Part shown: piece by piece, positions 4,370-29,785 of the stretch
How the letters are laid out: each line of letters begins with the position of its first letter
Numbering within the stretch: position 1 is the first letter of the stretch
Origin: a virus
Lineage: Duplodnaviria > Heunggongvirae > Uroviricota > Caudoviricetes
Length of the DNA stretch: 64,000 bases
Strand: one strand, 5' to 3'
Virus record (IMG/VR): IMGVR_UViG_3300034157_000066
Made by a program: the position numbers and the translations under genes
The notes under the pieces: model-generated
The model's input: only the letters and a program-made list of their open reading frames with translations
What the model was told of the DNA's origin: nothing
Database searches by the model: none

Positions 4370-4501
4370 ATGCAAGGTTCTTTCGGTGAAGCAACAGAAC
4401 GTTTTCGCGGCAAGCAACAAGACGCTTCCAAGACCAAAGAAAATCGCAAAGAACGTCAGTTCCGTGATGCTCGCCGCAACCGTCATCAAGACTCCGAATA
4501 A
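4370..4501 (+). CDS. 43-aa basic peptide, copy 1
   Basis: MQGSFGEATERFRGKQQDASKTKENRKERQFRDARRNRHQDSE; GGAG SD; two paralogs in window. Confidence 0.85.
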   Translation: MQGSFGEATERFRGKQQDASKTKENRKERQFRDARRNRHQDSE

Positions 4502-4512
4502 GGAAATCCATC

Positions 4513-4821
4513 ATGTATTTAATTGCCGTTAAAGACCTCGATCCGAAAAATGCTCTTGGCTACATGTTCTGGTCTGGATTCAAAGCTGACGCACAAGGCG
4601 ATGGCTCTCTGCCTACCTTCAACAAACCAATGGTCAGTGCTGACAAAGGCTTTCAAGAAAACGAAAAAAGCCTGCAGGCTACTCTGTTCACCACCAAAGA
4701 GTATGCTGAAAAAGAAGTTATTCGACTCAAAGAACTTATCCATAAACATACAGGTAAGTATTACGAGATGGAAACAATCAGTGCCGACTTGGCTGGTAGT
4801 ATGTTGAAGCTCTGGAAGTAA
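4513..4821 (+). CDS. hypothetical protein, paralog of 46591..46875
   Basis: shared LG(Y/F)..WSGF and F(T/S)T.EYA..E..R. Confidence 0.75.
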   Translation: MYLIAVKDLDPKNALGYMFWSGFKADAQGDGSLPTFNKPMVSADKGFQENEKSLQATLFTTKEYAEKEVIRLKELIHKHTGKYYEMETISADLAGSMLKLWK

Positions 4822-4913
4822 CCAGACTTTAAAGAAAAGGGAGCTTAGGCTCCTTTTTTGTTGCCTATTATTCTGTTTTTTGTTATCATCATAATCTAAA
4901 TTAAGGAGGCTTC

Positions 4914-5156
4914 ATGAAAACGCTTACGACAAAAAATGTTGCTGGTTCAGTTGCTGAAATGATCGGTGTTGAAGATATGATTGCCGCCTTGAAAGAGCTT
5001 CCAGCCGGTTCAAAGCTATGTGTTCGTCAAGAAGGTTTTTACGCTCTTGGTAAATTTGCTGACATCAATTTGCCGGAAGCCATCACTGTAACCGATGAGG
5101 TTACAAAAGAACAAGTTGTCGTCTACTCCATCGGAGACAGTGATCAAAACTACTAA
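4914..5156 (+). CDS. hypothetical protein
   Basis: AAGGAGG SD, terminator. Confidence 0.75.
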   Translation: MKTLTTKNVAGSVAEMIGVEDMIAALKELPAGSKLCVRQEGFYALGKFADINLPEAITVTDEVTKEQVVVYSIGDSDQNY

Positions 5157-5348
5157 TCGACAGGTTTCAAAAGAAGACAGCTACGGCTGTTTTCTTTGTT
5201 TATATATTTATTTTTATATGAATGTGATAGCATTTTGATATTTAAATTTATATAAAAAATAATTGACATCATTGTACTCCGAGGTAAATTATTAATTAAG
5301 AGTTGGGTTTAGACTAACTTGGAAGTTAATATTAATAACGGAGAATAC

Positions 5349-5831
5349 ATGTTTTCACTTATTATCTCGATCATTTCTATTGCTCTTATGGCTGCGTTAT
5401 CTGTTGCAACAATTGCTTATGGATTTTATGCCTATAACAACAATTCTATTTATACAAAAGCAACTTACTTATTAAATACTGCAAACACTATTGCTACTGC
5501 TGCTATTTTTGCGAAAAATGAAGGCGTTTCCATGACTGGCATGAGCGTTGACAATGTGAGTAAACTTAAAGATGCTGCCTATTTAACACACGTTCCTAAC
5601 TATGAAAGTGTTGACTTTGTAATTGATGCGGATGAGTCCTTAGTTAAAATACAAGACTCAGCATTACTTTCACTTGATGTTTGTAAACAGATTATTGCTA
5701 ATTATGACACCCTTAAATTTGACACTGTTTCAACTATTCCTGATGACCCTATTGATGGTCGTAAATATGGTTGTCATGTTGGTTCAAGTGGTGCTGGTTA
5801 TTACACGTTTTATTATCGTATTGATAAATAA
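5349..5831 (+). CDS. pilin-like protein lacking a prepilin leader
   Basis: MFSLIISIISIAL hydrophobic N-terminus, amphipathic continuation, C-terminal Cys pair. Confidence 0.6.
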   Translation: MFSLIISIISIALMAALSVATIAYGFYAYNNNSIYTKATYLLNTANTIATAAIFAKNEGVSMTGMSVDNVSKLKDAAYLTHVPNYESVDFVIDADESLVKIQDSALLSLDVCKQIIANYDTLKFDTVSTIPDDPIDGRKYGCHVGSSGAGYYTFYYRIDK

Positions 5832-5872
5832 TCAAGTCGAAAAAAAAGACTGTTTCAACAGTCTTCTTTTGT

Positions 5873-6283
5873 TTATTCGTCCATCTTGTCTTGGGCCATT
5901 GAAAGGCGTCTTCTAAACTCAAGTGGGTCAGCAATATACTTGATAGGGGCATTGCCATGACCAGTCCCTGATACGATAATTGTTCCAAAATTAAACATTC
6001 GGCCCATCAACCCTTGATTAACTTGAATACTTTCAACTTTTTTCAAGTTTATTTCAACAGTGTCTCTCTGGATAAATCCTTTTTTAGCAATCAATCGTTT
6101 ATTGGTGACAGCGAGTTCTGTACACTTTTTCTGAATGTAGACAACCACTAAAATCACAATACCTACAATAACAGGAATAAGTAGTACACCGAAAAAGATC
6201 TGCCAAAAGAAACCCCAGTTACTTAAACTTGCTTCATATTCAATTTTCTCACCGTCCATCAAGTTGTCACTTACATAACTCAT
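5873..6283 (-). CDS. bacterial PH-domain (bPH_2/YdbS-like) membrane protein
   Basis: TM hairpin then ELAVTNKRLIAKKGFI..INLKKVESIQVNQGLMGRMFNFGTIIV. Confidence 0.8.
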   Translation of the reverse strand: MSYVSDNLMDGEKIEYEASLSNWGFFWQIFFGVLLIPVIVGIVILVVVYIQKKCTELAVTNKRLIAKKGFIQRDTVEINLKKVESIQVNQGLMGRMFNFGTIIVSGTGHGNAPIKYIADPLEFRRRLSMAQDKMDE

Positions 6284-6434
6284 AGCATTCCTCCATTGTT
6301 CCACATAATATATCAAATATTGATATTTTTTCAAGACATATTTTAGATTATTATGTAAGTTTCCATTACAGCTTAAAATGCTTGATTAAAAAGCTAGAAT
6401 TTGATATGATTAATCAACATTTAGAGGACTTTAT

Positions 6435-6707
6435 ATGAAACACATCACTCGCTTTAATTCGGGATTGATTGCAATTATTTTTGCGTTGCTGGCGATTGTC
6501 TTTTTTCAAAGTGTTCGATATTCCGCTCATATGGAATATCATGTATCCAAAGATCTTCCGATTTGGTTTCATATCGGGTTTGTGCTGATGTTAGTTTCGA
6601 TTGTTTTTTCAACTCTATTTTGTTTGGTCGCTTGGGCATATACACCACACAATAATTTGCAGACGAATGCCGAAGAAACAACAGAACTTGACACTGTTGT
6701 TGGATAA
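6435..6707 (+). CDS. two-TM membrane protein
   Basis: AGAGGA SD, two hydrophobic segments. Confidence 0.65.
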   Translation: MKHITRFNSGLIAIIFALLAIVFFQSVRYSAHMEYHVSKDLPIWFHIGFVLMLVSIVFSTLFCLVAWAYTPHNNLQTNAEETTELDTVVG

Positions 6708-6767
6708 ATCACTTTACTAAAAATATGTTTTTTGATAGAATAGATCATAAACTTAAAATGGAAAGAC

Positions 6768-7238
6768 ATGATGAAACGATTTATTTTCTCTAAAATCACA
6801 ATTGTTTTCGTTGTCCACATAATGCTTTTGGTTGGCCTTTACTATGGCACCAAATCAATTGCAATGGTTCATGATCGGGCAGTAGTTCCTGTTTATCTGG
6901 TTGCTGTTAAACCTGATTCTGCAAAAACTTACGATGAAAATGGTTTTTTTATCGGTCAATTTGTTGGTGAATTTGACTATGAAGGTCACCGATTTGAACA
7001 AAATATTTCAATAAGCCAACGATTTGAGTTGATTCAATCGAAAAAGCCTGTTAGACACATGAAACTTCTTTCAGCGGCTGAAATAGGTCTTGATACGCCT
7101 TTCAATGGGCCGGGAACATATCTTTTTTATATACTTTCGATGGCTACATTCTTCTTAATGTTTTTGTTTACTGACCTTCCAAAATTTTACAGGGCTAATC
7201 AAAAAACTGTTTTTGATGAAAATAAAGCTTGCTCGTAA
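6768..7238 (+). CDS. two-TM protein with central soluble domain
   Basis: TM at both ends; topology like 21908 and 59759. Confidence 0.7.
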   Translation: MMKRFIFSKITIVFVVHIMLLVGLYYGTKSIAMVHDRAVVPVYLVAVKPDSAKTYDENGFFIGQFVGEFDYEGHRFEQNISISQRFELIQSKKPVRHMKLLSAAEIGLDTPFNGPGTYLFYILSMATFFLMFLFTDLPKFYRANQKTVFDENKACS

Positions 7239-7302
7239 ATGTGTTTTTTGATATGATAGACACATCAAAACGAGATACCCAATCAAATATCGGAGATACA
7301 CC

Positions 7303-7815
7303 ATGACCAAAGTTACCGCTCTCGAAACCGCAGTAATCGTGAACATCGTTGCTCTCGGCACTTCGTCGGTAAATGTTCAAACTATCACTACCGGCCCAGA
7401 AGCTGTAAAGCTCTCTCAGGTGAATGCAGTTCTCTTGAACCTGAAAGGTAAAGGTCTGGTTTCCCGTGATGGCGAAGGTGTTTCGCTGACTGAGGCTGGG
7501 GTTTCTCTCCATGCTGAACTGTTCCCGGCTCAGAAAGACCTCGATACCCTGCGTCACGAAAGCAACTTGGAACTGAACCGCCCAGCCAAGCCATCTTCAG
7601 CACATGAACTGAAACTCATCAACGAACTGATTGAACTTCGCACCAAGGCTCGACGTTTGGCAGCCGATGTGACTGAACTCGAAGCAGAAGTCATACCGCG
7701 TAGCTTCTCGGAAGTCATTTTCAGCATGTTCCCAAATGCAGTGAATGTCAAAATGGCTTCGATGGAACCTCTTGACCTGATGGGTTATCCAATGACCACC
7801 GTAGTAGTCGAATAA
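7303..7815 (+). CDS. winged-helix DNA-binding protein with coiled-coil C-terminus
   Basis: TALE.AV..NI.A.G...QV.AV..N...KGL..R....VSLT..G shared with 45105. Confidence 0.6.
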   Translation: MTKVTALETAVIVNIVALGTSSVNVQTITTGPEAVKLSQVNAVLLNLKGKGLVSRDGEGVSLTEAGVSLHAELFPAQKDLDTLRHESNLELNRPAKPSSAHELKLINELIELRTKARRLAADVTELEAEVIPRSFSEVIFSMFPNAVNVKMASMEPLDLMGYPMTTVVVE

Positions 7816-7834
7816 GAAAAAAGACTCAACAAGA

Positions 7835-7887
7835 AAGAGGCTTCGGCCTCTTTTCTTGTTGTTATTAGAACTCTTTTTTGATACAAT
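7835..7887 (+). repeat. 53-bp terminator+promoter cassette, copy 1
   Basis: 2 mismatches vs 8197..8249. Confidence 0.95.
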
Positions 7888-7915
7888 GAATAACTTATAT
7901 TAATTAGGAGCATTC

Positions 7916-8194
7916 ATGAAAAAGACATTTATTCTTGCACTTGCACTCGCTCTTTCTGTGTCGGCAGGTTGTAATGCAGAAGAAAAAACTAACACTAACA
8001 CACAAAGTAATATTTCAGGCAAAAAGACTAGATCTGTTACTTGTTATTCAGGAAATGCAGTAACTTACCAACATGACAATGTTATTTTGGTCGCTAGCAT
8101 TACTGATACTGACATTTCTGCAAGAATTCAAGAAGCTGATACTGGCATTAATATGCGGGTTCCTGTTTCGCAATGTTATTTTAAAGATAATTGA
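7916..8194 (+). CDS. small exported/lipoprotein-like protein
   Basis: signal peptide ending SAG-C; bracketed by 53-bp direct repeats. Confidence 0.75.
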   Translation: MKKTFILALALALSVSAGCNAEEKTNTNTQSNISGKKTRSVTCYSGNAVTYQHDNVILVASITDTDISARIQEADTGINMRVPVSQCYFKDN

Positions 8195-8196
8195 GT

Positions 8197-8249
8197 AAGA
8201 GGCTTCGGCCTCTTTTCTTGTTGTTATTATAACTCTTTTTTGATATAAT
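8197..8249 (+). repeat. 53-bp terminator+promoter cassette, copy 2
   Basis: AAGAGGCTTCGGCCTCTTTTCTTGTTGTTATTATAACTCTTTTTTGATATAAT. Confidence 0.95.
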
Positions 8250-8279
8250 TATCATCCACTCAATGAGATAGAGTACATC

Positions 8280-8456
8280 ATGAGCTATTTTGAAGAAGAG
8301 TCCCATCCAGTTACTCGCTTCGCACTGTTCCCACGTCAGATTGCTGGTCAGTGGTTTTGGTTAAAGTCTTTTGTATCAGATCGCGTGCTTGTTCATGGTC
8401 GTATGGATGGCTGCAGCACTGACATCTATGAATATCAGAACCATCGCTTGGTCTAA
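8280..8456 (+). CDS. 58-aa hypothetical protein
   Basis: MSYFEEESHPVTRFALFPRQIAGQWFWLK..; downstream of promoter. Confidence 0.6.
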   Translation: MSYFEEESHPVTRFALFPRQIAGQWFWLKSFVSDRVLVHGRMDGCSTDIYEYQNHRLV

Positions 8457-8520
8457 AACTAGTTGTGAAATGTCGTTTTTAATGATATGATCATCCCATC
8501 AAACATTCCGAGGATTTAAA

Positions 8521-8946
8521 ATGAAAGGTTTTGATTTTCACAAAAAAATGCAATTTCTTGACCTAGTTGTTCGAGATCACTGCAAGTCTATGCATATCTC
8601 TTTGGTTTGCTATGTCATGAACCCAAAGAAAGACAAAAAAAGCATGGCCGAATTTCATAAGCTTTCGGCTCTCAATGATGGTTTTGAGCACAGTCTGAAA
8701 ACTATCTTCCGTAAATATTTCCGTAACCTCGAAGGAAAAACGGGAGTGGATGTTGTTGTCACGAATGAAGAATTGAATGCTTTTACCAAAGCCTATAATC
8801 TTCAAAAAGACTTAATGAAAAAGGAATTTGAAAACTTGACATTGTTGGGTGCATCCGAAGAGGCTCTTGATCGCCTTGAAGTTGATATTGCTGACTGGGC
8901 TTCATTCTATCGTGATTTCATTGAAGAAGTTCAAGATTTCAAGTAA
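8521..8946 (+). CDS. hypothetical protein
   Basis: GAGGA SD, terminator. Confidence 0.7.
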   Translation: MKGFDFHKKMQFLDLVVRDHCKSMHISLVCYVMNPKKDKKSMAEFHKLSALNDGFEHSLKTIFRKYFRNLEGKTGVDVVVTNEELNAFTKAYNLQKDLMKKEFENLTLLGASEEALDRLEVDIADWASFYRDFIEEVQDFK

Positions 8947-9099
8947 CAAATTTTGACTTCACACAAAAGAGGCTTCTGCCTCTTTTTTATTATCAATAAA
9001 CTATAAAATGATAAAAAATTTCTTTACATGATGGATCAATTTCGTTATAATTATCCCATCAAAACGAAACACCACAATCAAACAGTTAGGAGATACACC

Positions 9100-9231
9100 A
9101 TGCAAGGTTCTTTCGGTGAAGCCACAGAGCGTTTTCGCGGCAAGCAACAAGACACTTCGAAATCCAAAGAAAATCGCAAAGAACGTAACTTCCGTGATAA
9201 ACGTCGCAATCGTCATCAAGACGCCGAATAA
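9100..9231 (+). CDS. 43-aa basic peptide, copy 2
   Basis: MQGSFGEATERFRGKQQDTSKSKENRKERNFRDKRRNRHQDAE; AGGAG SD. Confidence 0.85.
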   Translation: MQGSFGEATERFRGKQQDTSKSKENRKERNFRDKRRNRHQDAE

Positions 9232-9281
9232 CAGATAACAAAAAAGCCCTAGCGATAGGGCTTTTTTTATTTCTATTATTT

Positions 9282-9899
9282 TTACATTGGCACTCTACAT
9301 ACAGTCCATATTGACGAGTATCCAGAGTTACTAGTAATAGTTCCTTTTTTATAGGTATAGGTTCCAACAACTTTTTCAGTTGCTGCATATTCGCCACCAC
9401 TATACACTAAGGTACCAGCCCATTTTATATTAAGAAGTGCATATGCTGGAGAACCTGCTGTCCAACTAGAATCAGCAACATTACATTCCTCAACAGTCTT
9501 TGTTCCAATAGCTGTTCGGGTAGTTGTTTGATTTTTTAATGTTTGACTCTCATTTTTTATAGACCCAACATTTCTATATTCATGACTGACATTGTTTTGC
9601 TCTCTTTCCTGTACTGTTCTGGTTTGATCTTGATTACATCCACTACCAGTTTGAGGGAAGGACACTCCCATATTTACTGTGTTTGTGTCTGGTGTCCATG
9701 CTGTACAGCCTGTTGGAGAACCCACATTGACCCATGAACTCAATAATGGATCGGAACTTATCCATTTACTTACAAAACTAATATTTTCGCCATTTATTTG
9801 TTTTTCACCATAAATGACTTGATAAGACGCATTTGCTGTTGATGCTGTCATTAGTCCTAACAAAACTAATGAAAACATCATTTTATTTATTTTTTTCAT
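9282..9899 (-). CDS. secreted protein, tandem paralog A
   Basis: Sec signal; YQVIYGEKQING; W..VG..C..WTPD module; C-terminal YKKG..VCRVP. Confidence 0.85.
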   Translation of the reverse strand: MKKINKMMFSLVLLGLMTASTANASYQVIYGEKQINGENISFVSKWISSDPLLSSWVNVGSPTGCTAWTPDTNTVNMGVSFPQTGSGCNQDQTRTVQEREQNNVSHEYRNVGSIKNESQTLKNQTTTRTAIGTKTVEECNVADSSWTAGSPAYALLNIKWAGTLVYSGGEYAATEKVVGTYTYKKGTITSNSGYSSIWTVCRVPM

Positions 9900-9933
9900 A
9901 TTTTTACTCTTATTTTTTTATTGTTATGTTTTA

Positions 9934-10560
9934 TTATATTGGAACTCTACAAACGCTATGGAATGTGTAATACCCTGCGTTAGCAGTTTGAGCACCCTTG
10001 GTATATTTATATCCATTATATGTGTATTCTGTTAAGTATATATTGCCACTATCAGGGAATACTTTTACGCCTTCCCACATAACATACATAACACCGAATG
10101 ACGGCGTACCATTAACCCAACGTGTGTTCACATCTTTTGAACATTCTTCAATGACCTTTGTTCCATTTGCAGAACGGGTTAGTGTTTGATTTTTTAATGT
10201 TTGATTCTCATTTTTAACAGAACCTAAATTTCTGTACTCACCACTGACATTATTTTTCTCTCTTTCTTGAACTGTTCTTGTTTGATCTTGACTACATCCA
10301 GTAGCTGTTTGATCAAAGGTCACTCCAATATTTTTTGTGCTTACGTCTGGTGTCCATGCTGAACAACCTGTTGGAGAACCTACATTTGTCCAGTTACCTA
10401 ACAATGGATCAGAACTTAACCATTTGCTTACAAAACTAATATTGTCACCATTAATTTGTTTTTCACCATAAACTACAGTGTAGGATGGATCTTTTGCTTG
10501 TGCATTAACTGCCAAACCTAGCAAAGCTAACGATAGTATTTTTATCATTGATTTTTTCAT
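9934..10560 (-). CDS. secreted protein, tandem paralog B (mosaic)
   Basis: N-half like A, C-domain nearly identical to C. Confidence 0.85.
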   Translation of the reverse strand: MKKSMIKILSLALLGLAVNAQAKDPSYTVVYGEKQINGDNISFVSKWLSSDPLLGNWTNVGSPTGCSAWTPDVSTKNIGVTFDQTATGCSQDQTRTVQEREKNNVSGEYRNLGSVKNENQTLKNQTLTRSANGTKVIEECSKDVNTRWVNGTPSFGVMYVMWEGVKVFPDSGNIYLTEYTYNGYKYTKGAQTANAGYYTFHSVCRVPI

Positions 10561-10655
10561 TTAATCTCTCATATCTTATTATTATTGTTATTTATATATT
10601 ATCATGTGTTTTCCTAATTGAAATACTTTAATGCTAATATATTTATTATCATTTA

Positions 10656-11279
10656 TTATATTGGAACTCTACAAACGCTATGGAATGTGTAATAACCATA
10701 GTTAGCAGTTAATGCACCTTTAGTGTATTTATATCCATTATAGGTATATTCTGTTAAGTTAATATTACCAATATCAGGGAATACTTTTACACCTTCCCAC
10801 ATGATATACATCATACTCATTGATGGTGTGCCATTAACCCAACGTGTGTTCATATCTTTTGAACATTCATCCACAACCTTTGTTCCATTTGCCGAACGGG
10901 TTATTGTCTGATTAGTGAGTGTTTGTGATTCATTTATTGGATTGCCAATAGGTCGAAATGCTAACGTATAATTGTTTTGTTCTCTGTTCTGGACTGTTCT
11001 CGATTGTTCTTGTTCGCAGTCACTGGCTGTTTGGTCAAAAGTTATTCCAATTGCCATTGTGCTCGGGTCAGGTGTCCAACCAGAACAACCAGATGGAGAG
11101 CCTACATCAGCCCATGCTGATATTTCTGGTGATGCTTTTATCCACTTGCCTTTTTTGACAAACGTGATGTTGTCTCCATTGATTTGTTTCTCTCCATATA
11201 TAGCAGTATATGAAGCATTTGCTGTTAATGCAGTGCTCGCTAAAAGGGCACTTGTTAACATAAGTATTGTCTTTTTCAT
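10656..11279 (-). CDS. secreted protein, tandem paralog C
   Basis: same architecture; ends GYYTFHSVCRVPI like B. Confidence 0.85.
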   Translation of the reverse strand: MKKTILMLTSALLASTALTANASYTAIYGEKQINGDNITFVKKGKWIKASPEISAWADVGSPSGCSGWTPDPSTMAIGITFDQTASDCEQEQSRTVQNREQNNYTLAFRPIGNPINESQTLTNQTITRSANGTKVVDECSKDMNTRWVNGTPSMSMMYIMWEGVKVFPDIGNINLTEYTYNGYKYTKGALTANYGYYTFHSVCRVPI

Positions 11280-11571
11280 ACTAATATTATTATTATTATC
11301 TTACTACAAATTTAACACATTTTAGATAAAATCAAATATAAAAACGCACAATTATAGCTTAATATATAAGGTTTTATATTAAAAGTACTTATTATTGTTT
11401 GATGTTGTTTTTTATAAAGTTTTTTATTTAATGAACATTAAAATCACAAAAAACAAATCATCAACACCTCTAAAAATATTTATCAAATTTTGATATATTT
11501 TATAAAAAGCTTCCATTTTAGAGGTTTTCTTGCTATAATTTGGTTACTTTAGTGAGGTTGGAGCCTTCATC

Positions 11572-11676
11572 ATGTGCGACAAATGCAAAGTCTGCAAAAA
11601 AGACAATAAAGATGACACCAAACAGGTTGCTGAAAAGCCTTCTGGTGATGTGTCTGTTATCGTTAAGTCGAAATAA
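11572..11676 (+). CDS. 34-aa peptide with CxxCxxC N-terminus
   Basis: MCDKCKVCKKDNKDD..; GGAG SD; promoter upstream. Confidence 0.4.
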   Translation: MCDKCKVCKKDNKDDTKQVAEKPSGDVSVIVKSK

Positions 11677-11687
11677 GGAACTATTCC

Positions 11688-11879
11688 ATGAACCAGTTAA
11701 TGTCAGAAGAACCTTCGATTGATTACGCAATGGATCGAATGTCTATTGATGAAGCGATTGCTTACCTTCAGTCCCTGAAAGATCGGTTCATTGAACATCA
11801 TTGTGTACTCTCGTATGACTGTGTTGATGAGATTACTGGTGCATCGGCACTCAATCTTTATTCGGCTGACAAAAAGTAA
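11688..11879 (+). CDS. hypothetical protein
   Basis: AAGGA SD, terminator. Confidence 0.65.
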   Translation: MNQLMSEEPSIDYAMDRMSIDEAIAYLQSLKDRFIEHHCVLSYDCVDEITGASALNLYSADKK

Positions 11880-11976
11880 TACTGTAACAAAATAAATGAA
11901 CCGCTTTGGCGGTTTTTTGTTGCATGGCCGTTCAATATTGTTTATAATTGTTGTAATTAATCAGAGAGATATGTAA

Positions 11977-12180
11977 ATGATCGCGTGTAGTTGTCCAAAA
12001 TGTAGCACCTATGGTAATGCCTCTTATTGCATTAATGACATCATTGATGAAGGTAAGTCAGAATATGAATCCAGTCGTAAAAAGTCGGTTTTCTGGATGC
12101 GGTTTTCGCTTTGTGCTGCCGGAATATTTTGTTCTATTCCTGTTGTTATTCGTATTTTAGATTATTTTGTTAAGTCGTAA
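11977..12180 (+). CDS. small Cys-rich protein with C-terminal TM
   Basis: CxCxxC plus hydrophobic C-terminus. Confidence 0.6.
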   Translation: MIACSCPKCSTYGNASYCINDIIDEGKSEYESSRKKSVFWMRFSLCAAGIFCSIPVVIRILDYFVKS

Positions 12181-12225
12181 GTAGTTAATTTTGAATACAA
12201 TAAAGGAACCTTGTGGTTCCTTTTT

Positions 12226-18355: not shown

Positions 18356-18364
18356 GGAATTGAC

Positions 18365-21817: not shown

Positions 21818-21907
21818 GCACCAAATAATCACTATAAAAGGGCTTCGGCCCTTTCTTTTTGCTTGTGTGTTTGTTATAATAAAGTCCTATATTCAGAGAT
21901 TGTTCTC

Positions 21908-22387
21908 ATGAAAAAACCATTTTGGAAATCCTATTTCAGCGAACTGAAAACCATGTTCAGGCAGAACGTTTTGTTTATGTCGATACTGCTTGCTGTAGTC
22001 GTTACATCTCCGATTGGATACTCTTTCATGAGTTGGTATTCAACAGAAGTTCCGGCGACTCTCGTTGTTCATGATCCTGTTGCTTATCCCCACAAATATA
22101 AACAAAAAGTGGAATATCGGTACTACGCTACTTTTTACTTTCCAGACATACAAGCCAATAAAACAATTTCTGTTGCTGAACGAACGCATTTTCATGCACA
22201 GGCTGGTGATGTTTATTTGTTCTCTCGCAGTGATAAACTTCAAACTGGCCCCTACAACATCTATTCGTTTATAGCATTAATTCAATGTATTATTGCATTT
22301 ATGTTTGTCTGCGGATTGATTTGGTCTTTCTTTGAATTTACCAACACTTATTTCAGTGTTAAAAAGAAAGAAAGCACCTATCCATAA
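21908..22387 (+). CDS. two-TM protein with central beta-rich domain
   Basis: TM-soluble-TM topology. Confidence 0.7.
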   Translation: MKKPFWKSYFSELKTMFRQNVLFMSILLAVVVTSPIGYSFMSWYSTEVPATLVVHDPVAYPHKYKQKVEYRYYATFYFPDIQANKTISVAERTHFHAQAGDVYLFSRSDKLQTGPYNIYSFIALIQCIIAFMFVCGLIWSFFEFTNTYFSVKKKESTYP

Positions 22388-22476
22388 ACCAATTAAAATG
22401 TGATTTTTGTAGAAATCCATTGCAGGTCATCGTTCAGAATGGTATAATTACCCCATCAAGAGAAAAGGGGTTACAT

Positions 22477-22737
22477 ATGAACAAATTCATTATCGCCGTT
22501 GTTCTTTGCTTGTTCACTACCTTGGCTTCCGCTAGTGAACCAGTTCGGATTAAATATAATGGCAGTCGTGGTTGGGATGTTTCTTCCCCTATGTATCGTT
22601 CAACCACCAGTCAGGCAAAATCGAAGGTTCGTTACTACGAAAACCTTCCTAAAAAACAAGTAAAACAAGCTTTCCGTGACATGGACAGAAAAATAAATAC
22701 CAGTATTAATAAAAGCCTTAAAAAGATGTTTCGCTGA
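22477..22737 (+). CDS. small secreted basic protein
   Basis: Sec signal ..TLASA|SE. Confidence 0.7.
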   Translation: MNKFIIAVVLCLFTTLASASEPVRIKYNGSRGWDVSSPMYRSTTSQAKSKVRYYENLPKKQVKQAFRDMDRKINTSINKSLKKMFR

Positions 22738-22804
22738 CAGGCGGGTGTTGAATGTAAGTTGGTTGTTGTGTAAACTATGAATATAACCCAAGAGGATTCA
22801 AATC

Positions 22805-22924
22805 ATGAAAAATGAACTTGTTTCACTGGTTGTTTCTGCAAGTTGCATTCCATTCATCCTTCCAGCTTACATCGGATACCACATGTTCTTTGCTCGAAAT
22901 GATAAAGCACCAGTAAAACGCTAA
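22805..22924 (+). CDS. 39-aa membrane peptide
   Basis: AGAGGA SD; MKNELVSLVVSASCIPFILPAYIGYHMFF.. Confidence 0.5.
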   Translation: MKNELVSLVVSASCIPFILPAYIGYHMFFARNDKAPVKR

Positions 22925-23045
22925 GTCTCAACGGTAGATTAAAAAAGCCTAGATTAAAGAATTTAGGCTTTTTTATTTAAAATGAATACAATGTTCGTTT
23001 TTTGTTGTATAATAAGCCATAACTTTCTTATTGTAGGTAATTGTC

Positions 23046-23393
23046 ATGAGCACAGCACTTAAAATAGGCATTACTTTCGGCATTATCCTTATTCTTTTGT
23101 GCTTTACGATGCTGTTTCAAATATTTTCAGGCTCCTATCAGACCTACACCACGTCTGCCAGTCGAGTAGAAATTCTGAAATATGAACAGAGTGATAAAAG
23201 CGGGATCACTCGAGTTTTGTTGAAAAACCAAAATTCTGATGATTATTTCTTTGCTTCTGTTCCTGATAGTTGCAAATTTCTACCTATAAATTCTGTGGTT
23301 GATGTGACGGTTCAACGCCATGTTACACAGCTTTTGTGGTTTATTAACACTTACTCCATTCGCCTTGTTGAAGGTGATGTTTGCCAAAAATAG
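23046..23393 (+). CDS. single-TM exported protein
   Basis: N-terminal TM; similar terminators on both sides. Confidence 0.7.
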   Translation: MSTALKIGITFGIILILLCFTMLFQIFSGSYQTYTTSASRVEILKYEQSDKSGITRVLLKNQNSDDYFFASVPDSCKFLPINSVVDVTVQRHVTQLLWFINTYSIRLVEGDVCQK

Positions 23394-23494
23394 AACTCAA
23401 GACACTATAAAATAAGCCTATATTTCAAAATTTAGGTTTTTTTTTGTTTCAATTATGCTATAATAGCTTATTGAAATTACTAGGCTACAAGAAC

Positions 23495-24109
23495 ATGAAT
23501 GACGACAATATGTTGGAACTTGTTCACCCTCCTTATGTTTCCTATTTGGAAGCTGTCAAGAAAAACAAACTGGCTGATTTGACCATTCTCAATAGTTTGT
23601 GTTCCGACAATTTTGTTTATAATTTCCGTCAAAATTCCTTATTTCATAGAGAATGTCAGAAAGCGGGTGTTTATTCACTCGTTACGAAAACACTGGTTGA
23701 GAACCTTGCTGAACTTCTTAAAGGTAAATGTTGCCTTGAAGTTATGGCCGGTAGTGGTCGTTTAGCTCACCACTTGAATCAAGCGGGTGTGTCTGTTTTG
23801 GCAACCGATGACAATTCTTGGTCACTTAATGACCTTGAAGTAACGCAGATGTCAGGTTTAGACGCTGTTCGTCAATATTATGACCAGATGGACGTTCTCA
23901 TTCTCTGTTGGCCTCCTATGAACAGTGCCGCTTTCGAGATCATCAAGGCTTGGGGCACTGAAAAGCCTATTCTGGTGGGTGGTGAAATCGGTGGCTGTTG
24001 TGCAGATGAATTGTTCGATATTCACTTTAAAGGTGACTTTCTTGATGTGGGTAGCGTCTCATTTTCAGGCATACACGATTCATTCCAGTGGGGATACTTT
24101 AAACCATAA
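23495..24109 (+). CDS. SAM-dependent methyltransferase-like protein
   Basis: motif I LEVMAGSG; DVLILCWPP; GGE.GGC. Confidence 0.75.
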   Translation: MNDDNMLELVHPPYVSYLEAVKKNKLADLTILNSLCSDNFVYNFRQNSLFHRECQKAGVYSLVTKTLVENLAELLKGKCCLEVMAGSGRLAHHLNQAGVSVLATDDNSWSLNDLEVTQMSGLDAVRQYYDQMDVLILCWPPMNSAAFEIIKAWGTEKPILVGGEIGGCCADELFDIHFKGDFLDVGSVSFSGIHDSFQWGYFKP

Positions 24110-24159
24110 CTTTGGCTATTAAAACTAAGTTTTATATGATATTTAGTTCTTTATCTTGG

Positions 24160-24204
24160 GTTGACCTTCAAGATCGATAGCATTATAATATCGACACTTT
24201 GAAG
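24160..24204 (+). promoter_or_regulatory. promoter embedded in a hairpin that sequesters the SD of the hydrolase gene
   Basis: TTGACC-N17-TATAAT; CCTTCAA/TTGAAGG and TCGATA/TATCGA arms. Confidence 0.7.
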
Positions 24205-24217
24205 GAGATAGTAAGTT

Positions 24218-24715
24218 ATGATGCTTTTGAAAAACCTTACAATTCTACTGGCCCTTAGTGCCTCTACTGTTTTCGCTGCTGAAAAAGAGGCTGTTAGCCG
24301 TTGCGAATCGAATGATGAATGCTTGAAGTTGGCCGAGGTTCTTTACTTTGAAGCTCGGGGTGAAACCAAAGAAGGCATCATTGCTGTTGGTCAGGTAGTT
24401 CTTAACCGAACTGCTCGGGCTGGTGATACGATTGTCGCAGTTGTCGATAAAAAAGTGACTATCAAAAACAAGATCATTTGTCAGTTTTCATATGTCTGTG
24501 AGCTTCTTAATGGGAAGCCGAAGCGAATCAAAAATGACAAGTTGAAAGTTATCGCCCAAGGCTTGTTGGATAACAAATATCCAGATTACGCCAAAGGTGC
24601 TGACCATTTCTTTAACACGTCTATCGAAGCCCCTAGTTGGTCTAAGAACATGACGCACGTAAACTCTATCGGAAGTCATATGTTCTACGACTCAACCCGT
24701 GAAACAGACTCCTAA
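24218..24715 (+). CDS. cell wall hydrolase, SleB/Hydrolase_2 family
   Basis: LAEVLYFEARGE..AVGQVVLNR..CQFS..GADHFF..W..IGSHMFY; signal peptide. Confidence 0.9.
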   Translation: MMLLKNLTILLALSASTVFAAEKEAVSRCESNDECLKLAEVLYFEARGETKEGIIAVGQVVLNRTARAGDTIVAVVDKKVTIKNKIICQFSYVCELLNGKPKRIKNDKLKVIAQGLLDNKYPDYAKGADHFFNTSIEAPSWSKNMTHVNSIGSHMFYDSTRETDS

Positions 24716-24839
24716 TCCTGCTTAGCAATACTCTCAGCCCCTTTTGATTTCGGTCATTAGGGGCTTTTTTGTCACCTTAATTTATTGAATATTATCCGCT
24801 ATTCATGTATAATCTAAGTTCTTAATAGGAGTTCACCTT

Positions 24840-25085
24840 ATGCGAAGCCGCCGCTACTACATGCCCGCCATTGCACTTGCTGTAAGTTCGCAGAAAGGTT
24901 TTTCAAACGTTGAATCAACAGACGATTTGGTCAAACAACAACGAGAATATGAAGCGAATATCGGAAAGAAAAAATATCCATCCGATTGCTATCCTACAAT
25001 CCCCGAAGTTAATCTTTTCACTTCTCCTTATGAAAAACCTTACGGGAAATCGTTTCGACATTCTTTTATCGGAAAAGCCAAATAA
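24840..25085 (+). CDS. small protein, PYGK C-terminal family 1
   Basis: ends KPYGKSFRHSFIGKAK. Confidence 0.7.
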   Translation: MRSRRYYMPAIALAVSSQKGFSNVESTDDLVKQQREYEANIGKKKYPSDCYPTIPEVNLFTSPYEKPYGKSFRHSFIGKAK

Positions 25086-25104
25086 CCAGTGGAGACTTTA
25101 TTTC

Positions 25105-25323
25105 ATGTATGGTCATAATATCATTGTCCACGGAATTAGTAATGGTCGCTCTGGCGTTGGGGTGTTTGTTCGACGCCTATTGCCCATTCTTTTGATTACG
25201 GGTGATTTGGTTGTTGATCATGTTGTTCCTGACGAATTCAGCAAAAATAAAGGTGTTCAGCTTTCAATCAATCGACCTTACGGTAAAAAATATCGCAAGT
25301 CTTTTCTTGGTAAATCTAATTAA
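25105..25323 (+). CDS. small protein, PYGK C-terminal family 2
   Basis: GGAG SD; ends RPYGKKYRKSFLGKSN. Confidence 0.7.
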   Translation: MYGHNIIVHGISNGRSGVGVFVRRLLPILLITGDLVVDHVVPDEFSKNKGVQLSINRPYGKKYRKSFLGKSN

Positions 25324-25343
25324 TCAGTAGGAGATCTTTTTTC

Positions 25344-25565
25344 ATGTATCGTAAAGACATTATTGTTATTGGTGGTCTTGGTGGAGTTGGCTTAGGCCGG
25401 GTTATGCGAGCTAATTCCAACATCCCGATCATTTCTGGTGATTTTATCGTCACTCATCATGGTTTCGTTGATTATGTCGAACCGATTGTAATCAAGACCG
25501 ACAACCGCCTTTATTACCAGCAGTTTGATAAGCCTTATGGTAAAAATTATCGCCGGTCAAAATGA
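25344..25565 (+). CDS. small protein, PYGK C-terminal family 3
   Basis: AGGAG SD; ends KPYGKNYRRSK. Confidence 0.7.
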   Translation: MYRKDIIVIGGLGGVGLGRVMRANSNIPIISGDFIVTHHGFVDYVEPIVIKTDNRLYYQQFDKPYGKNYRRSK

Positions 25566-25634
25566 AGTTTTTCTATACAGGCTACTTTATGTTTGTTATA
25601 ATGGCTTCAATATTTGATAACAGGAGATAACACT

Positions 25635-25856
25635 ATGGGTTTGGCATTCGGTATTAGCGTTGATGACGTAGCTTCTGTTCTGGCTAGTTGCGGTGTTTCT
25701 CAGATCACAGAAGATGAATTGAACAACCTCTTTGAATCCCTTGATCAAGATCGCGTTGAAAAAGCTGCTCTGGCAGGTGATGATATGGATGAGCAAACTC
25801 ATTATGCTCACGCTGAAATTGCTGTTCAACTGAAAGAGCATGGGTTTCTTTCTTAA
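25635..25856 (+). CDS. small acidic protein
   Basis: AGGAG SD; about 15 D/E vs 3 K/R. Confidence 0.7.
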   Translation: MGLAFGISVDDVASVLASCGVSQITEDELNNLFESLDQDRVEKAALAGDDMDEQTHYAHAEIAVQLKEHGFLS

Positions 25857-25958
25857 TTTTTCATTTGTTACAAAAGAATAGGCTTCGGCCTATTTTTTTG
25901 TTTGATAAAATCTTCATTTTGTTGTATAATTTATTCCTAAACAAAGAGGGTAGCAATT

Positions 25959-26462
25959 ATGACAGTTTTCAAATACAATGTTGGCGATAAGGTGATTGAC
26001 CTTTCCAGCCTGTCTTTGTGGAATAATTCTAGCCACTTTTCTCAGTTTGAAAACGGCTTCGTAAAAACTGTCACCAGTGCGACTGCAGAACATTTTTCTG
26101 TCACTAGTTATGACGTGACAAAACCAATGAATTATGACGCCCACAATGATCGCTTTATCTTTAACCAAAAAGATGGCAGTTGCCGCGATTACACTCACTC
26201 CATTGATAATCACCTTTATCACTTCGTTCATGACCATGAGCGGGTTGTTGCCTTTGTCAAAAAGAAAATTGCCGAAGCTTTTGCAAAAGCGAATGAAGAT
26301 GATGACAAAGAAATTGCTTCTTTGGAAGCTCAAATTCGCAGCCTTCAAGCTCGGATTGAAAAAATCAAAGCGGGTGGACGTGAAGCCGTCTTTGGTAAAG
26401 TTCCACAGCACGAATTCTTGCAGAATCGTGAAAAATTCATTTTGACCAGTCTGGGTCTTTAA
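25959..26462 (+). CDS. hypothetical protein with coiled coil
   Basis: AGAGG SD. Confidence 0.75.
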   Translation: MTVFKYNVGDKVIDLSSLSLWNNSSHFSQFENGFVKTVTSATAEHFSVTSYDVTKPMNYDAHNDRFIFNQKDGSCRDYTHSIDNHLYHFVHDHERVVAFVKKKIAEAFAKANEDDDKEIASLEAQIRSLQARIEKIKAGGREAVFGKVPQHEFLQNREKFILTSLGL

Positions 26463-26484
26463 TCTTTTAACTGAGGTTTACAAC

Positions 26485-26745
26485 ATGTATCATATGACCA
26501 TAGGTGATGTGGCTGGTCTTACAGCTTGTGTTTTGTTTGTTGTTCTTATGATTGTTGTCCATAATCTTGGCGTAAAAGTTATGCGACCCGAGGCCGAAGA
26601 AAATAAAGAAGATTATTTGGCTCAAGGTTTTATATGGGGGCTTCGTATTATGATTGTAGGCTTTTCGCTTGTCCCCTTTGGCTTTTTCGCCTTTGTTTAC
26701 CTATCCAATCATCCACACGCTTTGGACTTTTTGATTTTTAAATAA
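26485..26745 (+). CDS. two-TM membrane protein
   Basis: GAGG SD, two TMs. Confidence 0.7.
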   Translation: MYHMTIGDVAGLTACVLFVVLMIVVHNLGVKVMRPEAEENKEDYLAQGFIWGLRIMIVGFSLVPFGFFAFVYLSNHPHALDFLIFK

Positions 26746-26818
26746 AAAACGGAGAAAAATGTTGTTTTCATCGGTAACCCTTGGTATAATTACCACACTA
26801 ACCCAGTGAGGCTCTACC

Positions 26819-27097
26819 ATGTCCCGTTATACTCGCAACGACCTTTACGCTGAACTCAACGAAGTTAACAAAAACTTGGCTGGCTCCGGCTACTATCTGG
26901 CTGCTCAAAGTCGTAATGGCTACACAGGTCTTGATGAATACCGTGGCGATGCCAGCGAAGGCCATGCAGGTAAATGTGTCCGCAACCTGAAATGTGGTAC
27001 ACCGCGTGAATGTATTCAGGCTGCTTATGACTACGAACCGCCTGAAGAAGCTCGCAGCTTGAACGGCACTCAAAAAAGCCCTTTCGGCCCGATGTAA
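26819..27097 (+). CDS. hypothetical protein
   Basis: GAGG SD, promoter, terminator. Confidence 0.75.
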   Translation: MSRYTRNDLYAELNEVNKNLAGSGYYLAAQSRNGYTGLDEYRGDASEGHAGKCVRNLKCGTPRECIQAAYDYEPPEEARSLNGTQKSPFGPM

Positions 27098-27224
27098 GCA
27101 AATCTTAAAACCAACTAAAAGGCCGTTATACGGTCTTTTTTTATTAAACAACATTTTCAGTAGTTTGGTTGTCTTAACCATTTAATTCTGCTATAATCGT
27201 TTTATTCATTTTGAGGTCATTCTA

Positions 27225-27563
27225 ATGACAGCCACCACTGAAAAAGCTTTTGCTTCAATCGTTTCTAATGTTGATAACGATGCTGTTTACAACATCACAG
27301 CCAAAGTGCTTGATACCAACATTATCAAGAAAATTCGCATTAAAAATGCAACCATTGATTCTGATGGCCCGATTGAAATCCTTTCCATTTTCGGCACCCA
27401 GTGGCATGAATGCCCCGATAAAGACAGATTGTCATTTGAACGATTTGACCGGGCGATCAGTGCTTACTTGATTGAAGTCACTAAGCATTGTCACCCCCTT
27501 GATCTTATGCGTCATCTGGCCGACAAAGGTTTCTCTTTCGAGTATTACCCAGACAGAATTTGA
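27225..27563 (+). CDS. hypothetical protein
   Basis: GAGG SD. Confidence 0.7.
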   Translation: MTATTEKAFASIVSNVDNDAVYNITAKVLDTNIIKKIRIKNATIDSDGPIEILSIFGTQWHECPDKDRLSFERFDRAISAYLIEVTKHCHPLDLMRHLADKGFSFEYYPDRI

Positions 27564-27637
27564 TTGTCTTTTTCTTTATTTTTTGCTATACTTCTAGTGT
27601 TGTATAATCTTCTACAACCATTCAATGTGAGGTGTGT

Positions 27638-27832
27638 ATGGCTGGTTACATTCATGACGATATCAAAGAAATTATGGATGAAGCTGCTGAAAATAAACGG
27701 CAGTCTGGTGGTAATGTTTCTTTACCATCCACAGAAGGTTGGAGTGACGACCAGTTGAAAGATTTGAATGTCATGATGCAGTATGCATGGAACCGTGGAT
27801 ACAAGTCTGCAGCAAAGGATTTTACCGAGTAG
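27638..27832 (+). CDS. hypothetical protein
   Basis: GAGG SD. Confidence 0.65.
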   Translation: MAGYIHDDIKEIMDEAAENKRQSGGNVSLPSTEGWSDDQLKDLNVMMQYAWNRGYKSAAKDFTE

Positions 27833-27947
27833 TCTTTATTTTTATTTGTGCCCAATTAGACCACCTTCTGGTGGTTTTTTCATGCCTTTTATTTCCCCTT
27901 TGACCTTTTTTGTGGTATAATGGCGTTATTCAAAAAGGGGTGCTTTT

Positions 27948-28556
27948 ATGAAAATTATCGAACATGAATCTGCACAGTATAAGCCAAGAACTGTACACAA
28001 TGCTCATACTGCAGATCTTACTGTCGCTTTCGCAGAAGACTTTACCTCGGCAGGTGAAAAACTTACCAAGCGTGAAGCTGGCAAACGGTATGTGGCTATC
28101 CCTTTGAGCACAGATCCCCTTGTTGCCGCTCGTATGCTCTATGCCGCGTGCAAAAAACACAATGTATCCACCTTGAACGTAGCGGGGAATGGTATCTATT
28201 CTCTGTCTGGCGAATGGGCACCGGGTCTGTTGACCAATGATCAAAAACTCAAAACCTTGGATGAAGCAAAACTTGTTAATGAATTTCAAGTGTCATTGAA
28301 CCAGTGGGTTTATATGGTTATTGCCAAAGTCCATGAGTTCTGGCCGCTGACTAACCTTATCTCAGGTGGTCAAACAGGTGCTGACTGGGCGGGTGGTATT
28401 GCTGGTGAAGCTATTGGCTTGAATGTGACGATGACATTCCCTAAACATTGCTTGCAACGTGATGAGCATCATAAAGACTTCACCCAGCCTGTTGAAATGG
28501 TTCAAAAGAAAGTTGATGCTTATTTGAACTATATTGATAGCTCGAAAAAACTCTAA
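27948..28556 (+). CDS. SLOG-superfamily protein (cpYpsA/MoCo-carrier-like motifs, permuted order)
   Basis: RT.HNA..AD.TVAF, TLNVAGN, LISGGQTGAD. Confidence 0.7.
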   Translation: MKIIEHESAQYKPRTVHNAHTADLTVAFAEDFTSAGEKLTKREAGKRYVAIPLSTDPLVAARMLYAACKKHNVSTLNVAGNGIYSLSGEWAPGLLTNDQKLKTLDEAKLVNEFQVSLNQWVYMVIAKVHEFWPLTNLISGGQTGADWAGGIAGEAIGLNVTMTFPKHCLQRDEHHKDFTQPVEMVQKKVDAYLNYIDSSKKL

Positions 28557-28644
28557 TACGTTATCAACCTAGATATAGACCACCTTCGGGTGGTTTTTTT
28601 GTTAAAAAACTGTTATACTTTATGAAATTATAGTAGAGGTTTCA

Positions 28645-28839
28645 ATGAAAACACGCATCCTAGAAGTTGAACGTAACAACGGCAAAAAGGCTTATATTTG
28701 TCAGTACAAATGGCTTTTCTGGTGGCGGCCATGTAATACCTATATCACTCATTTTCCAAGAGGCTCTTGCCGTGATGGTTATGCCAAAAGAGAATATGCC
28801 GAGGAACGCATTCGAGACTTTTTGGCCGGAGAGCCTTAA
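28645..28839 (+). CDS. hypothetical protein
   Basis: AGAGG SD; QYKWLFWW. Confidence 0.65.
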   Translation: MKTRILEVERNNGKKAYICQYKWLFWWRPCNTYITHFPRGSCRDGYAKREYAEERIRDFLAGEP

Positions 28840-28901
28840 AAAAGAGTTTTATTAAATCTGTATTTGATGTATAATTAACTCAAATCAAACGAGGCTATAC
28901 C

Positions 28902-29492
28902 ATGAACTCCCTTGAAAACCTGAATGCTCAACTCAAAGCCATTCATGAGCAACGTGCTCAAATCTTTGAGAAAATCAAGCCTCTTCAAGAACAAGCGTCT
29001 GTTCTCTACAGCCAGATTATAGAACTTAATGATGCCATCACTGTTGAAACACTGAAAACTGAACAGTCTGAACAAGACCGTTTTGATTTCTTGATGGCTG
29101 AAAGTGGTTCTGGTTCGGATATGATTCGGTATCGTGCGGCTGATACGCTTATTCGGTCAATGGGCCTTTACATGAGTGGTCACTGTCCATTCAGCCAGCA
29201 GCGTTCAGCAGATGTGTTTATTTTTAAGGCTGATGAAGATCGCAACACCCAGTCTATTGCATCTATCAAAAAATTGATAGAACTGTTCAAACCAATGGAC
29301 GACGATGGTAATAAATTGTTTCGTGTGTTCTGCGAAGATTACACTATTTTTTGTCATTCAGATGGAAAGTTCTCTCTTCGTGGATGTTACAACAAGAACC
29401 AAGAATTCGAAACGCTGGAAGCTTTGTTTACTTACTATGTCGCAACCTATCATTGTTACGACAGTAATGATAATGACAACAGCGACGATTGA
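28902..29492 (+). CDS. hypothetical protein with N-terminal coiled coil
   Basis: GAGG SD, terminator. Confidence 0.75.
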   Translation: MNSLENLNAQLKAIHEQRAQIFEKIKPLQEQASVLYSQIIELNDAITVETLKTEQSEQDRFDFLMAESGSGSDMIRYRAADTLIRSMGLYMSGHCPFSQQRSADVFIFKADEDRNTQSIASIKKLIELFKPMDDDGNKLFRVFCEDYTIFCHSDGKFSLRGCYNKNQEFETLEALFTYYVATYHCYDSNDNDNSDD

Positions 29493-29653
29493 AGAAAGGG
29501 CCAGATGGCCCTTTTTTTTATTCCTTGTCAATCAAGAAGATGGCTTATTTTATTCATGTAAATTTTAGAAAAAAACAAAAATAATGCTTTACAGTGGTTT
29601 CCTTTTTACTTATAATAACCCCATCGAAACGAAACAACATAAGGATACAAAAT

Positions 29654-29785
29654 ATGCAAGGTTCTCACCGCGACATGATGGAAAAGTTTGCAGGCAAGCA
29701 GAAAGACACCACCAAACGTGGCGAAAACAAAGCCAGCCGTCAAATGCGTGACCAGCGTCGTCAGCGTCATCCAGACGCAGAATAA
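29654..29785 (+). CDS. 43-aa basic peptide, copy 3 (divergent)
   Basis: MQGSHRDMMEKFAGKQKDTTKRGENKASRQMRDQRRQRHPDAE; AAGGA SD. Confidence 0.85.
   Translation: MQGSHRDMMEKFAGKQKDTTKRGENKASRQMRDQRRQRHPDAE

Follow-up and report, generated by a model that had tools for sequence, protein, structure and literature searches.

Why would a viral genome carry three copies of a gene for a highly basic peptide of only 43 residues, one of them placed immediately before a transfer RNA (tRNA) gene? The question is raised by a stretch of 64,000 nucleotides (nt) of the IMG/VR record IMGVR_UViG_3300034157_000066, a virus of the Caudoviricetes, which we analysed at its full length and call the window. The initial annotation of this DNA had pointed to three open reading frames (ORFs) of exactly 43 amino acids (aa) starting at 4370, 9100 and 29654, and we confirmed both coordinates and translations (copies 1, 2 and 3; Table 1). 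The three ORFs belong to a real, conserved and undescribed family of microproteins of giant phage-like elements. Many members head tRNA operons, an arrangement that is both unusual and conserved, and we infer the function of the family from its composition and gene context.

A conserved family of basic microproteins

The three ORFs are real genes under purifying selection. Between copies 1 and 2, six codon differences are synonymous and five are non-synonymous, which gives a ratio of non-synonymous to synonymous substitution rates (dN/dS) of 0.26 at a synonymous divergence (dS) of 0.30; copies 1 and 3 give a ratio of 0.37 at a dS above 1.2. The initial annotation had cited many synonymous changes between copies 1 and 2 as a sign of selection on the peptide: the selection is borne out, although "many" was generous. 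In the wider family, represented by 35 distinct DNA versions from related loci, dN/dS was below 1 in all 272 usable pairs (median 0.36). The ratio is thus not near 1, and the peptide matches no known family, two points on which the initial annotation had depended. The codons of the initial MQGS vary synonymously at Gly and Ser among relatives, which also indicates that the constraint acts on the peptide.

The great brevity of the ORFs and conflicting gene calls at copy 2 leave some room for the view that the ORFs are not protein genes and that their similarity reflects a conserved RNA or a repeat. We regard this as very improbable. Besides the substitution ratios, the entropy of the family DNA is highest at third codon positions (59, against 39 at first and 33 at second positions), the frame is open in 35 of the 35 versions, every copy whose upstream sequence was read has a Shine-Dalgarno site and an ATG there, and the RNA folds of the units are unremarkable (z-scores of -1.4 and -2.2, the second aided by the terminator).

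Codon usage sets these ORFs apart from the other genes of the window. CGT and CGC account for 89% of the Arg codons in the family (54% in the window's other genes), AGA for 3 of 243 (15% in the window's genes), and Leu makes up 0.2% of residues (8.2% in the window's genes). This choice of codons is of the kind seen in highly expressed genes. Since the ORFs are nearly devoid of Leu codons and AGA and prefer CGT and CGC, the peptide can be made without the element's own tRNAs.

Within the window, a search with the family profile in all six frames found exactly three copies. Copies 2 and 3 are, respectively, 88% and 53% identical to copy 1, and 22 of the 43 positions are invariant when two close relatives are added to the three copies. 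A profile search of 1.8 billion representative proteins recovered 21 clusters at 50% identity, and a word-indexed search recovered 69 clusters at 90% identity. Members are 41-46 aa long (false upstream extensions apart), all come from metagenomes, and the only name they bear is "hypothetical protein". Conservation in the family centres on MQGS, on E-[RK]-F and on R..RRNRH, after which the protein ends in a short acidic tip: M1, S4, E10, F12, R35 and R38 are invariant in the alignment, Q2, G3, R32 and H39 are conserved in at least 90% of members, and N37 is nearly constant. Arg and Lys contribute 16% and 14% of residues, the net charge ranges from +4 to +9, and aliphatic residues are almost absent. 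AlphaFold2, run on the family alignment, predicts helices at residues 5-11 and 19-36, with a mean predicted local distance difference test score (pLDDT) of 78 that rises to about 90 over residues 21-40.

Searches for relatives beyond the family were negative. Pfam, PHROGs, NCBIfam and PDB sequences held no family match (best PHROG E-value 0.12); the best PDB row was the eukaryotic eS24, over 19 residues and with an insignificant E-value of 0.064. BLAST with copy 1 and its flanks and tblastn with its peptide found no match in 50,697 phage records, and no relative turned up when 185,579 species genomes were scanned by pattern. Fused or longer forms of the family were searched for and none was found. 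A feature search of the ESM Atlas gave no usable match, and Foldseek gave none between the AlphaFold2 model and the PDB, as expected for a 43-residue helix. These are previously unnamed microproteins, present in several copies per giant phage-like element; a related IMG/VR contig of 290 kb, for example, has six copies, four of them heading tRNA clusters.

The paralogues are old and fall into two context classes, each with orthologues in related elements. As judged from sequence divergence, a younger duplication seems to have given rise to copies 1 and 2, whereas copy 3 is an old paralogue, with its own orthologues and its own context at the head of a tRNA operon. This fits poorly with the dosage amplification proposed in the initial annotation, since only copies 1 and 2 appear to have been duplicated more recently.

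Each copy also has its own expression signals, as first noted: a near-consensus sigma-70-type promoter lies 45-50 nt upstream of every copy (10-11 of 12 consensus matches), and every copy has a Shine-Dalgarno site. Terminators precede the promoters of copies 2 and 3, and a two-way hairpin closes the unit of copy 2 (Table 1). Each copy is a small, insulated unit that is probably highly expressed and read by the host's sigma-70 RNA polymerase. The 102-aa ORF found just after copy 1 is probably co-transcribed with it; this ORF has no family match and is not conserved next to more distant members of the family.

The promoters further help to define the starts of the genes. The frame of copy 2 can be extended to 67 aa from an ATG at 9028, which is upstream of the -10 box, so the longer reading should not be translated and the 43-aa start is credible. 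Public gene calls on orthologous DNA are inconsistent at this place: some assemblies have the 43-aa gene, one has a different gene of 120 aa, and others have a close gene on the reverse strand. False N-terminal extensions, with starts that precede the promoter's -10 box, are annotated in several relatives.

The initial annotation had described a CATC(A/G)AAACGAAAC leader as part of the cassette. The sequence does follow the promoter of each copy (at 4330, 9057 and 29622), but it is generic to the promoters of the element instead of specific to the peptide. The + strand of the window has 11 occurrences of CATCRAAACGA (4330, 7263, 9057, 29622, 32151, 42622, 43076, 45073, 47894, 49415 and 56222), against 1.6 expected and none on the - strand. 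All sites lie 4-6 nt downstream of the -10 box of a promoter-like site, and these promoters serve, among other genes, the thymidine kinase and several unrelated ORFs. In a looser form (-10 box, 4-7 nt, CATCRA), the motif is found 29 times on the + strand and four times on the - strand. Because it directly follows the -10 box at unrelated genes, we regard it as a start-site or initially transcribed motif of promoters; it could act as an initiator, as an initially transcribed signal or as a shared 5' tag of the element's messages. Three of the leaders that carry the motif (42622-42660, 43076-43114 and 45073-45111) have in addition a hairpin, CGAGA(N13-14)TCTCG, around the Shine-Dalgarno site just before ATG GCT AAG, which may serve to control translation. 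Two of the genes behind these leaders, at 42660 and 43114, have near-identical starting residues and look paralogous.

Linkage to tRNA genes

The tRNA-Leu gene that had been noted 6 nt after copy 3 is a tRNA-Leu(UAA), the sole tRNA gene of the window. It is on the same strand as copy 3, with neither a promoter nor a terminator between them. This arrangement recurs in the family: 17 of the 29 distinct peptides are tRNA-linked (counting a partial tRNA in L018). The gap between stop codon and tRNA is typically 5-12 nt in relatives, and in the subgroup that includes copy 3 the first tRNA begins 6-12 nt past the stop. The usual order in metagenome loci resembling copy 3 is the peptide ORF, tRNA-Arg(UCU) at +9 and then tRNA-Leu(UAA); a tRNA-Met(CAU) or an odd tRNA-like RNA is also part of some of these units.

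The spacing is remarkably constant. The tRNA-Arg(UCU) is at exactly +9 in about 10 distinct members, and this includes P0020 and P0021 (38% and 49% identical to copy 1), which are the most diverged members that could be checked and whose spacers are of equal length and unrelated sequence. In P0024 (44% identical to copy 1), a tRNA cut by the end of the contig lies 66 nt past the stop codon. The maximum likelihood tree of the family separates a tRNA-leading group, in which 15 of 15 members are linked (including copy 3), from a mostly stand-alone group, in which 12 of 14 are unlinked (including copies 1 and 2). Mapping tRNA linkage on this tree requires 3 changes, compared with 9.6 when the labels are shuffled.

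There is no conserved protein neighbour: the ORFs downstream of copy 1 and of its relatives in L011, L014, L015, L019 and L040 are mutually unrelated. One diverged stand-alone member (L035, 2501-4721) lies beside a non-coding unit of about 250 nt that has its own promoter and a terminator and is followed by a TROVE (Ro60-like) gene. The non-coding unit has no Rfam match and might be a Y-RNA-like partner.

Two further observations concern the tRNA side of these loci. In L017, L028, L029 and L037, the microprotein gene is followed after 7 nt by a tRNA-like gene in which ARAGORN reads a two-base "anticodon" (ga). The copy in L037, the only one scanned with Rfam, scores 44 bits as a tRNA, and this gene looks like an aberrant or non-decoding tRNA look-alike. 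In the window, the two repeats of GTGCCAGAGGTGA downstream of tRNA-Leu (Table 1) place a strong Shine-Dalgarno site 7 nt before the three-codon mini-ORFs M-Q-H-stop and M-Q-F-stop, which start with M-Q as the microprotein does and are reminiscent of the bar minigenes of lambda. The repeats and mini-ORFs apparently lie within the transcription unit of copy 3 and tRNA-Leu.

Candidate roles of the microprotein

What could such a peptide do? Our leading reading, which we hold tentatively, is that the microprotein acts in trans as an arginine-rich-motif (ARM) RNA binder of the translation apparatus, its targets being the ribosome or tRNAs, whether of the element or of the host. The initial annotation had proposed an RNA- or ribosome-binding effector: the conserved Arg-rich helix and the linkage to tRNAs fit such a role, and the binding itself is deduced from composition and gene context. 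Translation in vivo, the target and any effect on translation are likewise inferred. The protein would be largely one long helix, of which the C-terminal part carries the conserved R-x-x-R-R-N-R-H and the acidic tip. That the peptide itself is the product is indicated by copy 2 and by the relatives in L014 and L015, which are promoter-ORF-terminator units with nothing downstream. The microprotein would then be part of a tRNA-based translation module of the element, and in the subgroup of copy 3 its ORF would be the first cistron of the tRNA operon.

The closest known parallels for such a helix are the ARMs of HIV-1 Rev and lambda N. In Rev, Arg35, Arg39, Asn40 and Arg44 read bases in the major groove of the Rev response element (PMC4488727). 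The family shares with these small viral regulators a short, Arg-dense stretch that is predicted to be helical (here R..RRNRH, with the long helix at residues 19-36), and the Asn of its R-R-N-R resembles that of Rev, in kind only. There is no detectable sequence relationship, and searches of PHROG and Pfam and with tblastn gave no profile match to lambda N or to named phage small-protein families. The motif here makes up the C-terminal half of a protein of 43 aa that stands alone and ends in an acidic tip, unlike lambda N and Rev, which carry extra domains (for NusA and RNA polymerase in one case, for oligomerisation and export in the other).

A different set of small proteins invites comparison by size and charge: Sra/bS22, RMF, bL34, bS21 and ArfA are, like the microprotein, of 40-70 aa and strongly basic, and they are highly expressed, as the microprotein probably is. 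The bS21 protein is encoded by some uncultured phages. None of them matched the family in Pfam, NCBIfam or PDB sequences, even at E-values up to 10. The RNR motif of the RNase P protein and bL34, considered on account of the RRNR and of a size of 44-46 aa, were dropped, as neither gave a profile match.

The genetic organisation itself has a precedent in secG-leuU of Escherichia coli, in which a protein cistron directly followed by a tRNA-Leu gene forms one transcript with it; RNase P cuts the messenger RNA (mRNA) and the tRNA apart, after which the mRNA is lost in less than 30 s (PMC2241853). The family shows the same mixed layout, with ORF and tRNA on one strand and no promoter or terminator between them. 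The difference is that secG encodes an unrelated membrane protein, whereas here a dedicated microprotein family accompanies tRNA-Arg(UCU) and tRNA-Leu(UAA) over many duplications and lineages, with the spacing fixed at 6-12 nt. As the first tRNA lies just past the stop codon, cleavage by RNase P at its 5' end would free the tRNAs and leave a peptide mRNA with almost no 3' tail. By analogy with secG-leuU, the tRNA-linked copies may yield peptide in a brief pulse that follows the output of tRNA, and the stand-alone copies with terminator hairpins may give longer-lived messages.

The same layout could also mean that the ORF is mainly a cis-acting translated leader of the tRNA operon, through which ribosomes would govern read-through, termination by Rho or the moment at which RNase P acts on the first tRNA, while RNase P cleavage would shorten the life of the peptide mRNA. 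The constant and very short distance between stop codon and tRNA is in line with this idea, since a terminating ribosome would cover the 5' end of the tRNA, and secG-leuU provides a known mRNA-tRNA co-transcript resolved by RNase P. We nevertheless find it unlikely. The amino acid sequence is conserved, unlike that of typical leader peptides, and single-gene copies with their own terminator exist. The scarcity of Leu and AGA codons in a peptide with a dN/dS of 0.36 led us to reject a codon-sensing (attenuation-type) leader, because the codons of the downstream tRNAs are those nearly absent from the ORFs. In the minimum-free-energy fold of the copy 3 unit, part of the ORF pairs with the 5' strand of the tRNA; across 15 units this complementarity is inconsistent (z-scores from -2.0 to +2.0), and the energies of ORF-tRNA duplexes are no better than those of codon-shuffled ORFs. 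An anti-acceptor RNA switch was rejected on these grounds.

The nearest precedent for an Arg-rich peptide in a tRNA operon is Tpr of E. coli, a "protamine-like protein" of 29 aa encoded in the tyrT-tyrV transcript (PMC3141248). Tpr is encoded 3' of the tRNAs, within rttR, whereas the microprotein is encoded 5'. The Q-G-S-x4-A-x-E-R-x-R of Tpr (L041, 1088-1177) lines up with the Q-G-S-x3-A-x-E-R-F-R of the family, a similarity that is statistically insignificant, if curious for two peptides that both come from tRNA operons. Kinship was rejected, with an hhalign probability of 0.8% over 12 aligned columns.

Several points weigh against a role in translation. Basic helices rich in arginine can have DNA or acidic proteins as their ligands as well. 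Twelve of the 29 members, copies 1 and 2 among them, have no adjacent tRNA. The count of 17 linked members overstates the unbiased frequency, because the metagenome search (11 loci) was seeded with sequences resembling copy 3; among the members picked from the profile search, four of seven are linked. The copies are related, so the linkage counts are not independent, and the deepest split of the tree is weakly supported (61/64). The linkage could also arise if the tRNA genes ride on, and duplicate with, a strong promoter.

These points lend some weight to the possibility that the microprotein is a small basic effector acting on DNA or on a host protein (for example, to shut off the host, to bind the nucleoid or to inhibit a nuclease or a defence protein), the tRNAs merely sharing and co-duplicating with its promoter. 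The stand-alone units (copy 2 and the relatives in L014 and L015), the varied and unrelated neighbours of the stand-alone copies and a composition that cannot separate RNA binders from DNA binders are all compatible with it. Such an effector does not account for an entire subgroup in which every member is tRNA-linked, nor for a +9 spacing to tRNA-Arg(UCU) that is retained down to 38% identity with different spacer sequences. On balance we judge it possible but rather unlikely.

A narrower role, as a dedicated partner of tRNAs, would have the microprotein shield tRNA-Arg(UCU), tRNA-Leu(UAA) or their host counterparts from tRNA-cleaving defences, or aid their maturation. The apparent co-transcription with exactly these two tRNAs argues for it, as does the evidence that phage tRNAs counter tRNA-targeting defences (PMC10264068; PMC11555353). 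The existence of stand-alone copies and the lack of similarity to known nuclease inhibitors argue against it, and we give this role a low probability, the lowest among those that treat the ORFs as genes. There is also a bolder reading, which we put forward as a long shot: the family might be a new class of phage translation factor, stoichiometric with the element's tRNA-Arg(UCU) and tRNA-Leu(UAA), that binds these tRNAs or the ribosome and favours the decoding of the element's AT-rich codons or shields the tRNAs from host cleavage, with the constant spacing coupling translation to RNase P processing.

The element and the meaning of the family

DNA nearly identical to the window is found in JGI and Logan assemblies of wastewater type, on contigs of up to 1.85-1.92 Mb. 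IMG/VR also has related contigs of 152-290 kb, which it classes as proviruses; since Terminase_6N was not found in two of these related records, their phage nature rests on the IMG/VR classification and on gene content. Orthologous or related DNA also occurs on metagenome contigs of 1.54, 1.85, 1.86 and 1.92 Mb (L001, L004, L026 and L028; stated range 0.8-1.9 Mb). A methyl-accepting chemotaxis protein (MCP) gene (L001) or a TnpB gene (L004) is found on the orthologous contigs some 1.5 kb ahead of the window's start. The element may be a giant provirus that sits in a small bacterial genome, or it may belong to something larger.

Most ORFs of the window have no family match, and among the rest are weak baseplate-like matches. 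The recognisable genes are listed with the other features in Table 1. Two large proteins (40920-42527 and 50155-51819) combine an N-terminal pilin methylation motif with a C-terminal Shufflon_N (PilV-like) region, such that type IV pilin-like genes are found within a phage-like region.

Table 1. Features of the window and, in the last four rows, of related loci. Positions in the window count from its first nucleotide.
Feature	Position	Strand	Remarks
Promoter of copy 1, TTTACA-17-TATACT	4296..4324	+	10/12 consensus matches
Start-site motif CATCAAAACGAAAC, copy 1	4330..4343	+	Generic to the element's promoters
Copy 1 (P0001), 43-aa basic microprotein	4370..4501	+	GGAG Shine-Dalgarno 8 nt 5'
102-aa ORF	4513..4821	+	Starts 11 nt past copy 1
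Terminator 5' of copy 2 promoter	8965-8986
Promoter of copy 2, TTTACA-17-TATAAT	9023..9051	+	11/12 consensus matches
Start-site motif CATCAAAACGAAAC, copy 2	9057..9070	+
Copy 2 (P0002), 43-aa microprotein	9100..9231	+	Single-gene unit
Two-way intrinsic terminator hairpin	9240..9267	.	End of copy 2 unit
Circularly permuted YpsA/SLOG-family protein	27948-28556
Terminator 5' of copy 3 promoter	29491-29518
Promoter of copy 3, TTTACA-17-TATAAT	29588..29616	+	11/12 consensus matches
Start-site motif CATCGAAACGAAAC, copy 3	29622..29635	+
Copy 3 (P0003), 43-aa microprotein	29654..29785	+	Member of the tRNA-leading subgroup
tRNA-Leu(UAA)	29792..29876	+	Rfam tRNA, 59.4 bits; starts 6 nt past copy 3 stop
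Two repeats of GTGCCAGAGGTGA	29915..30055	+	Spaced 109 nt, 3' of tRNA-Leu; read from sequence
Mini-ORF ATG CAG CAT TAA	29935-29946	+	After GTGCCAGAGGTGA
Mini-ORF ATG CAG TTC TAA	30044-30055	+	After GTGCCAGAGGTGA
GC-rich hairpin and T run	30099..30125	.	Likely end of copy 3/tRNA-Leu unit
Thymidine kinase	32179-32787		E-value 1e-39
HNH endonuclease-like protein	57583-58674
tRNA-like gene, two-base anticodon, L017	~3524-3600	-	Positions on the reverse complement
tRNA-like gene, two-base anticodon, L028	3134-3210
tRNA-like gene, two-base anticodon, L029	1669-1746
tRNA-like gene, two-base anticodon, L037	2634-2710

The family has a practical bearing on genome annotation, as genes of this kind are easily missed or mis-called, which is illustrated by the disagreement over copy 2 and by the false N-terminal extensions of its relatives. 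It also bears on the debated question of why phages carry tRNAs, for which the supply of codons and escape from tRNA-cleaving defences are the main ideas. A conserved microprotein that keeps the company of the same two or three tRNA species across many duplications and lineages of giant phage-like elements offers an easily synthesised, 43-residue handle on that question. If the proposed processing is true, its tRNA-linked copies would be natural mRNAs with a 3' end set by tRNA processing. Should the microprotein prove to bind tRNA or ribosomes, the biology of phage tRNAs would gain a protein partner.

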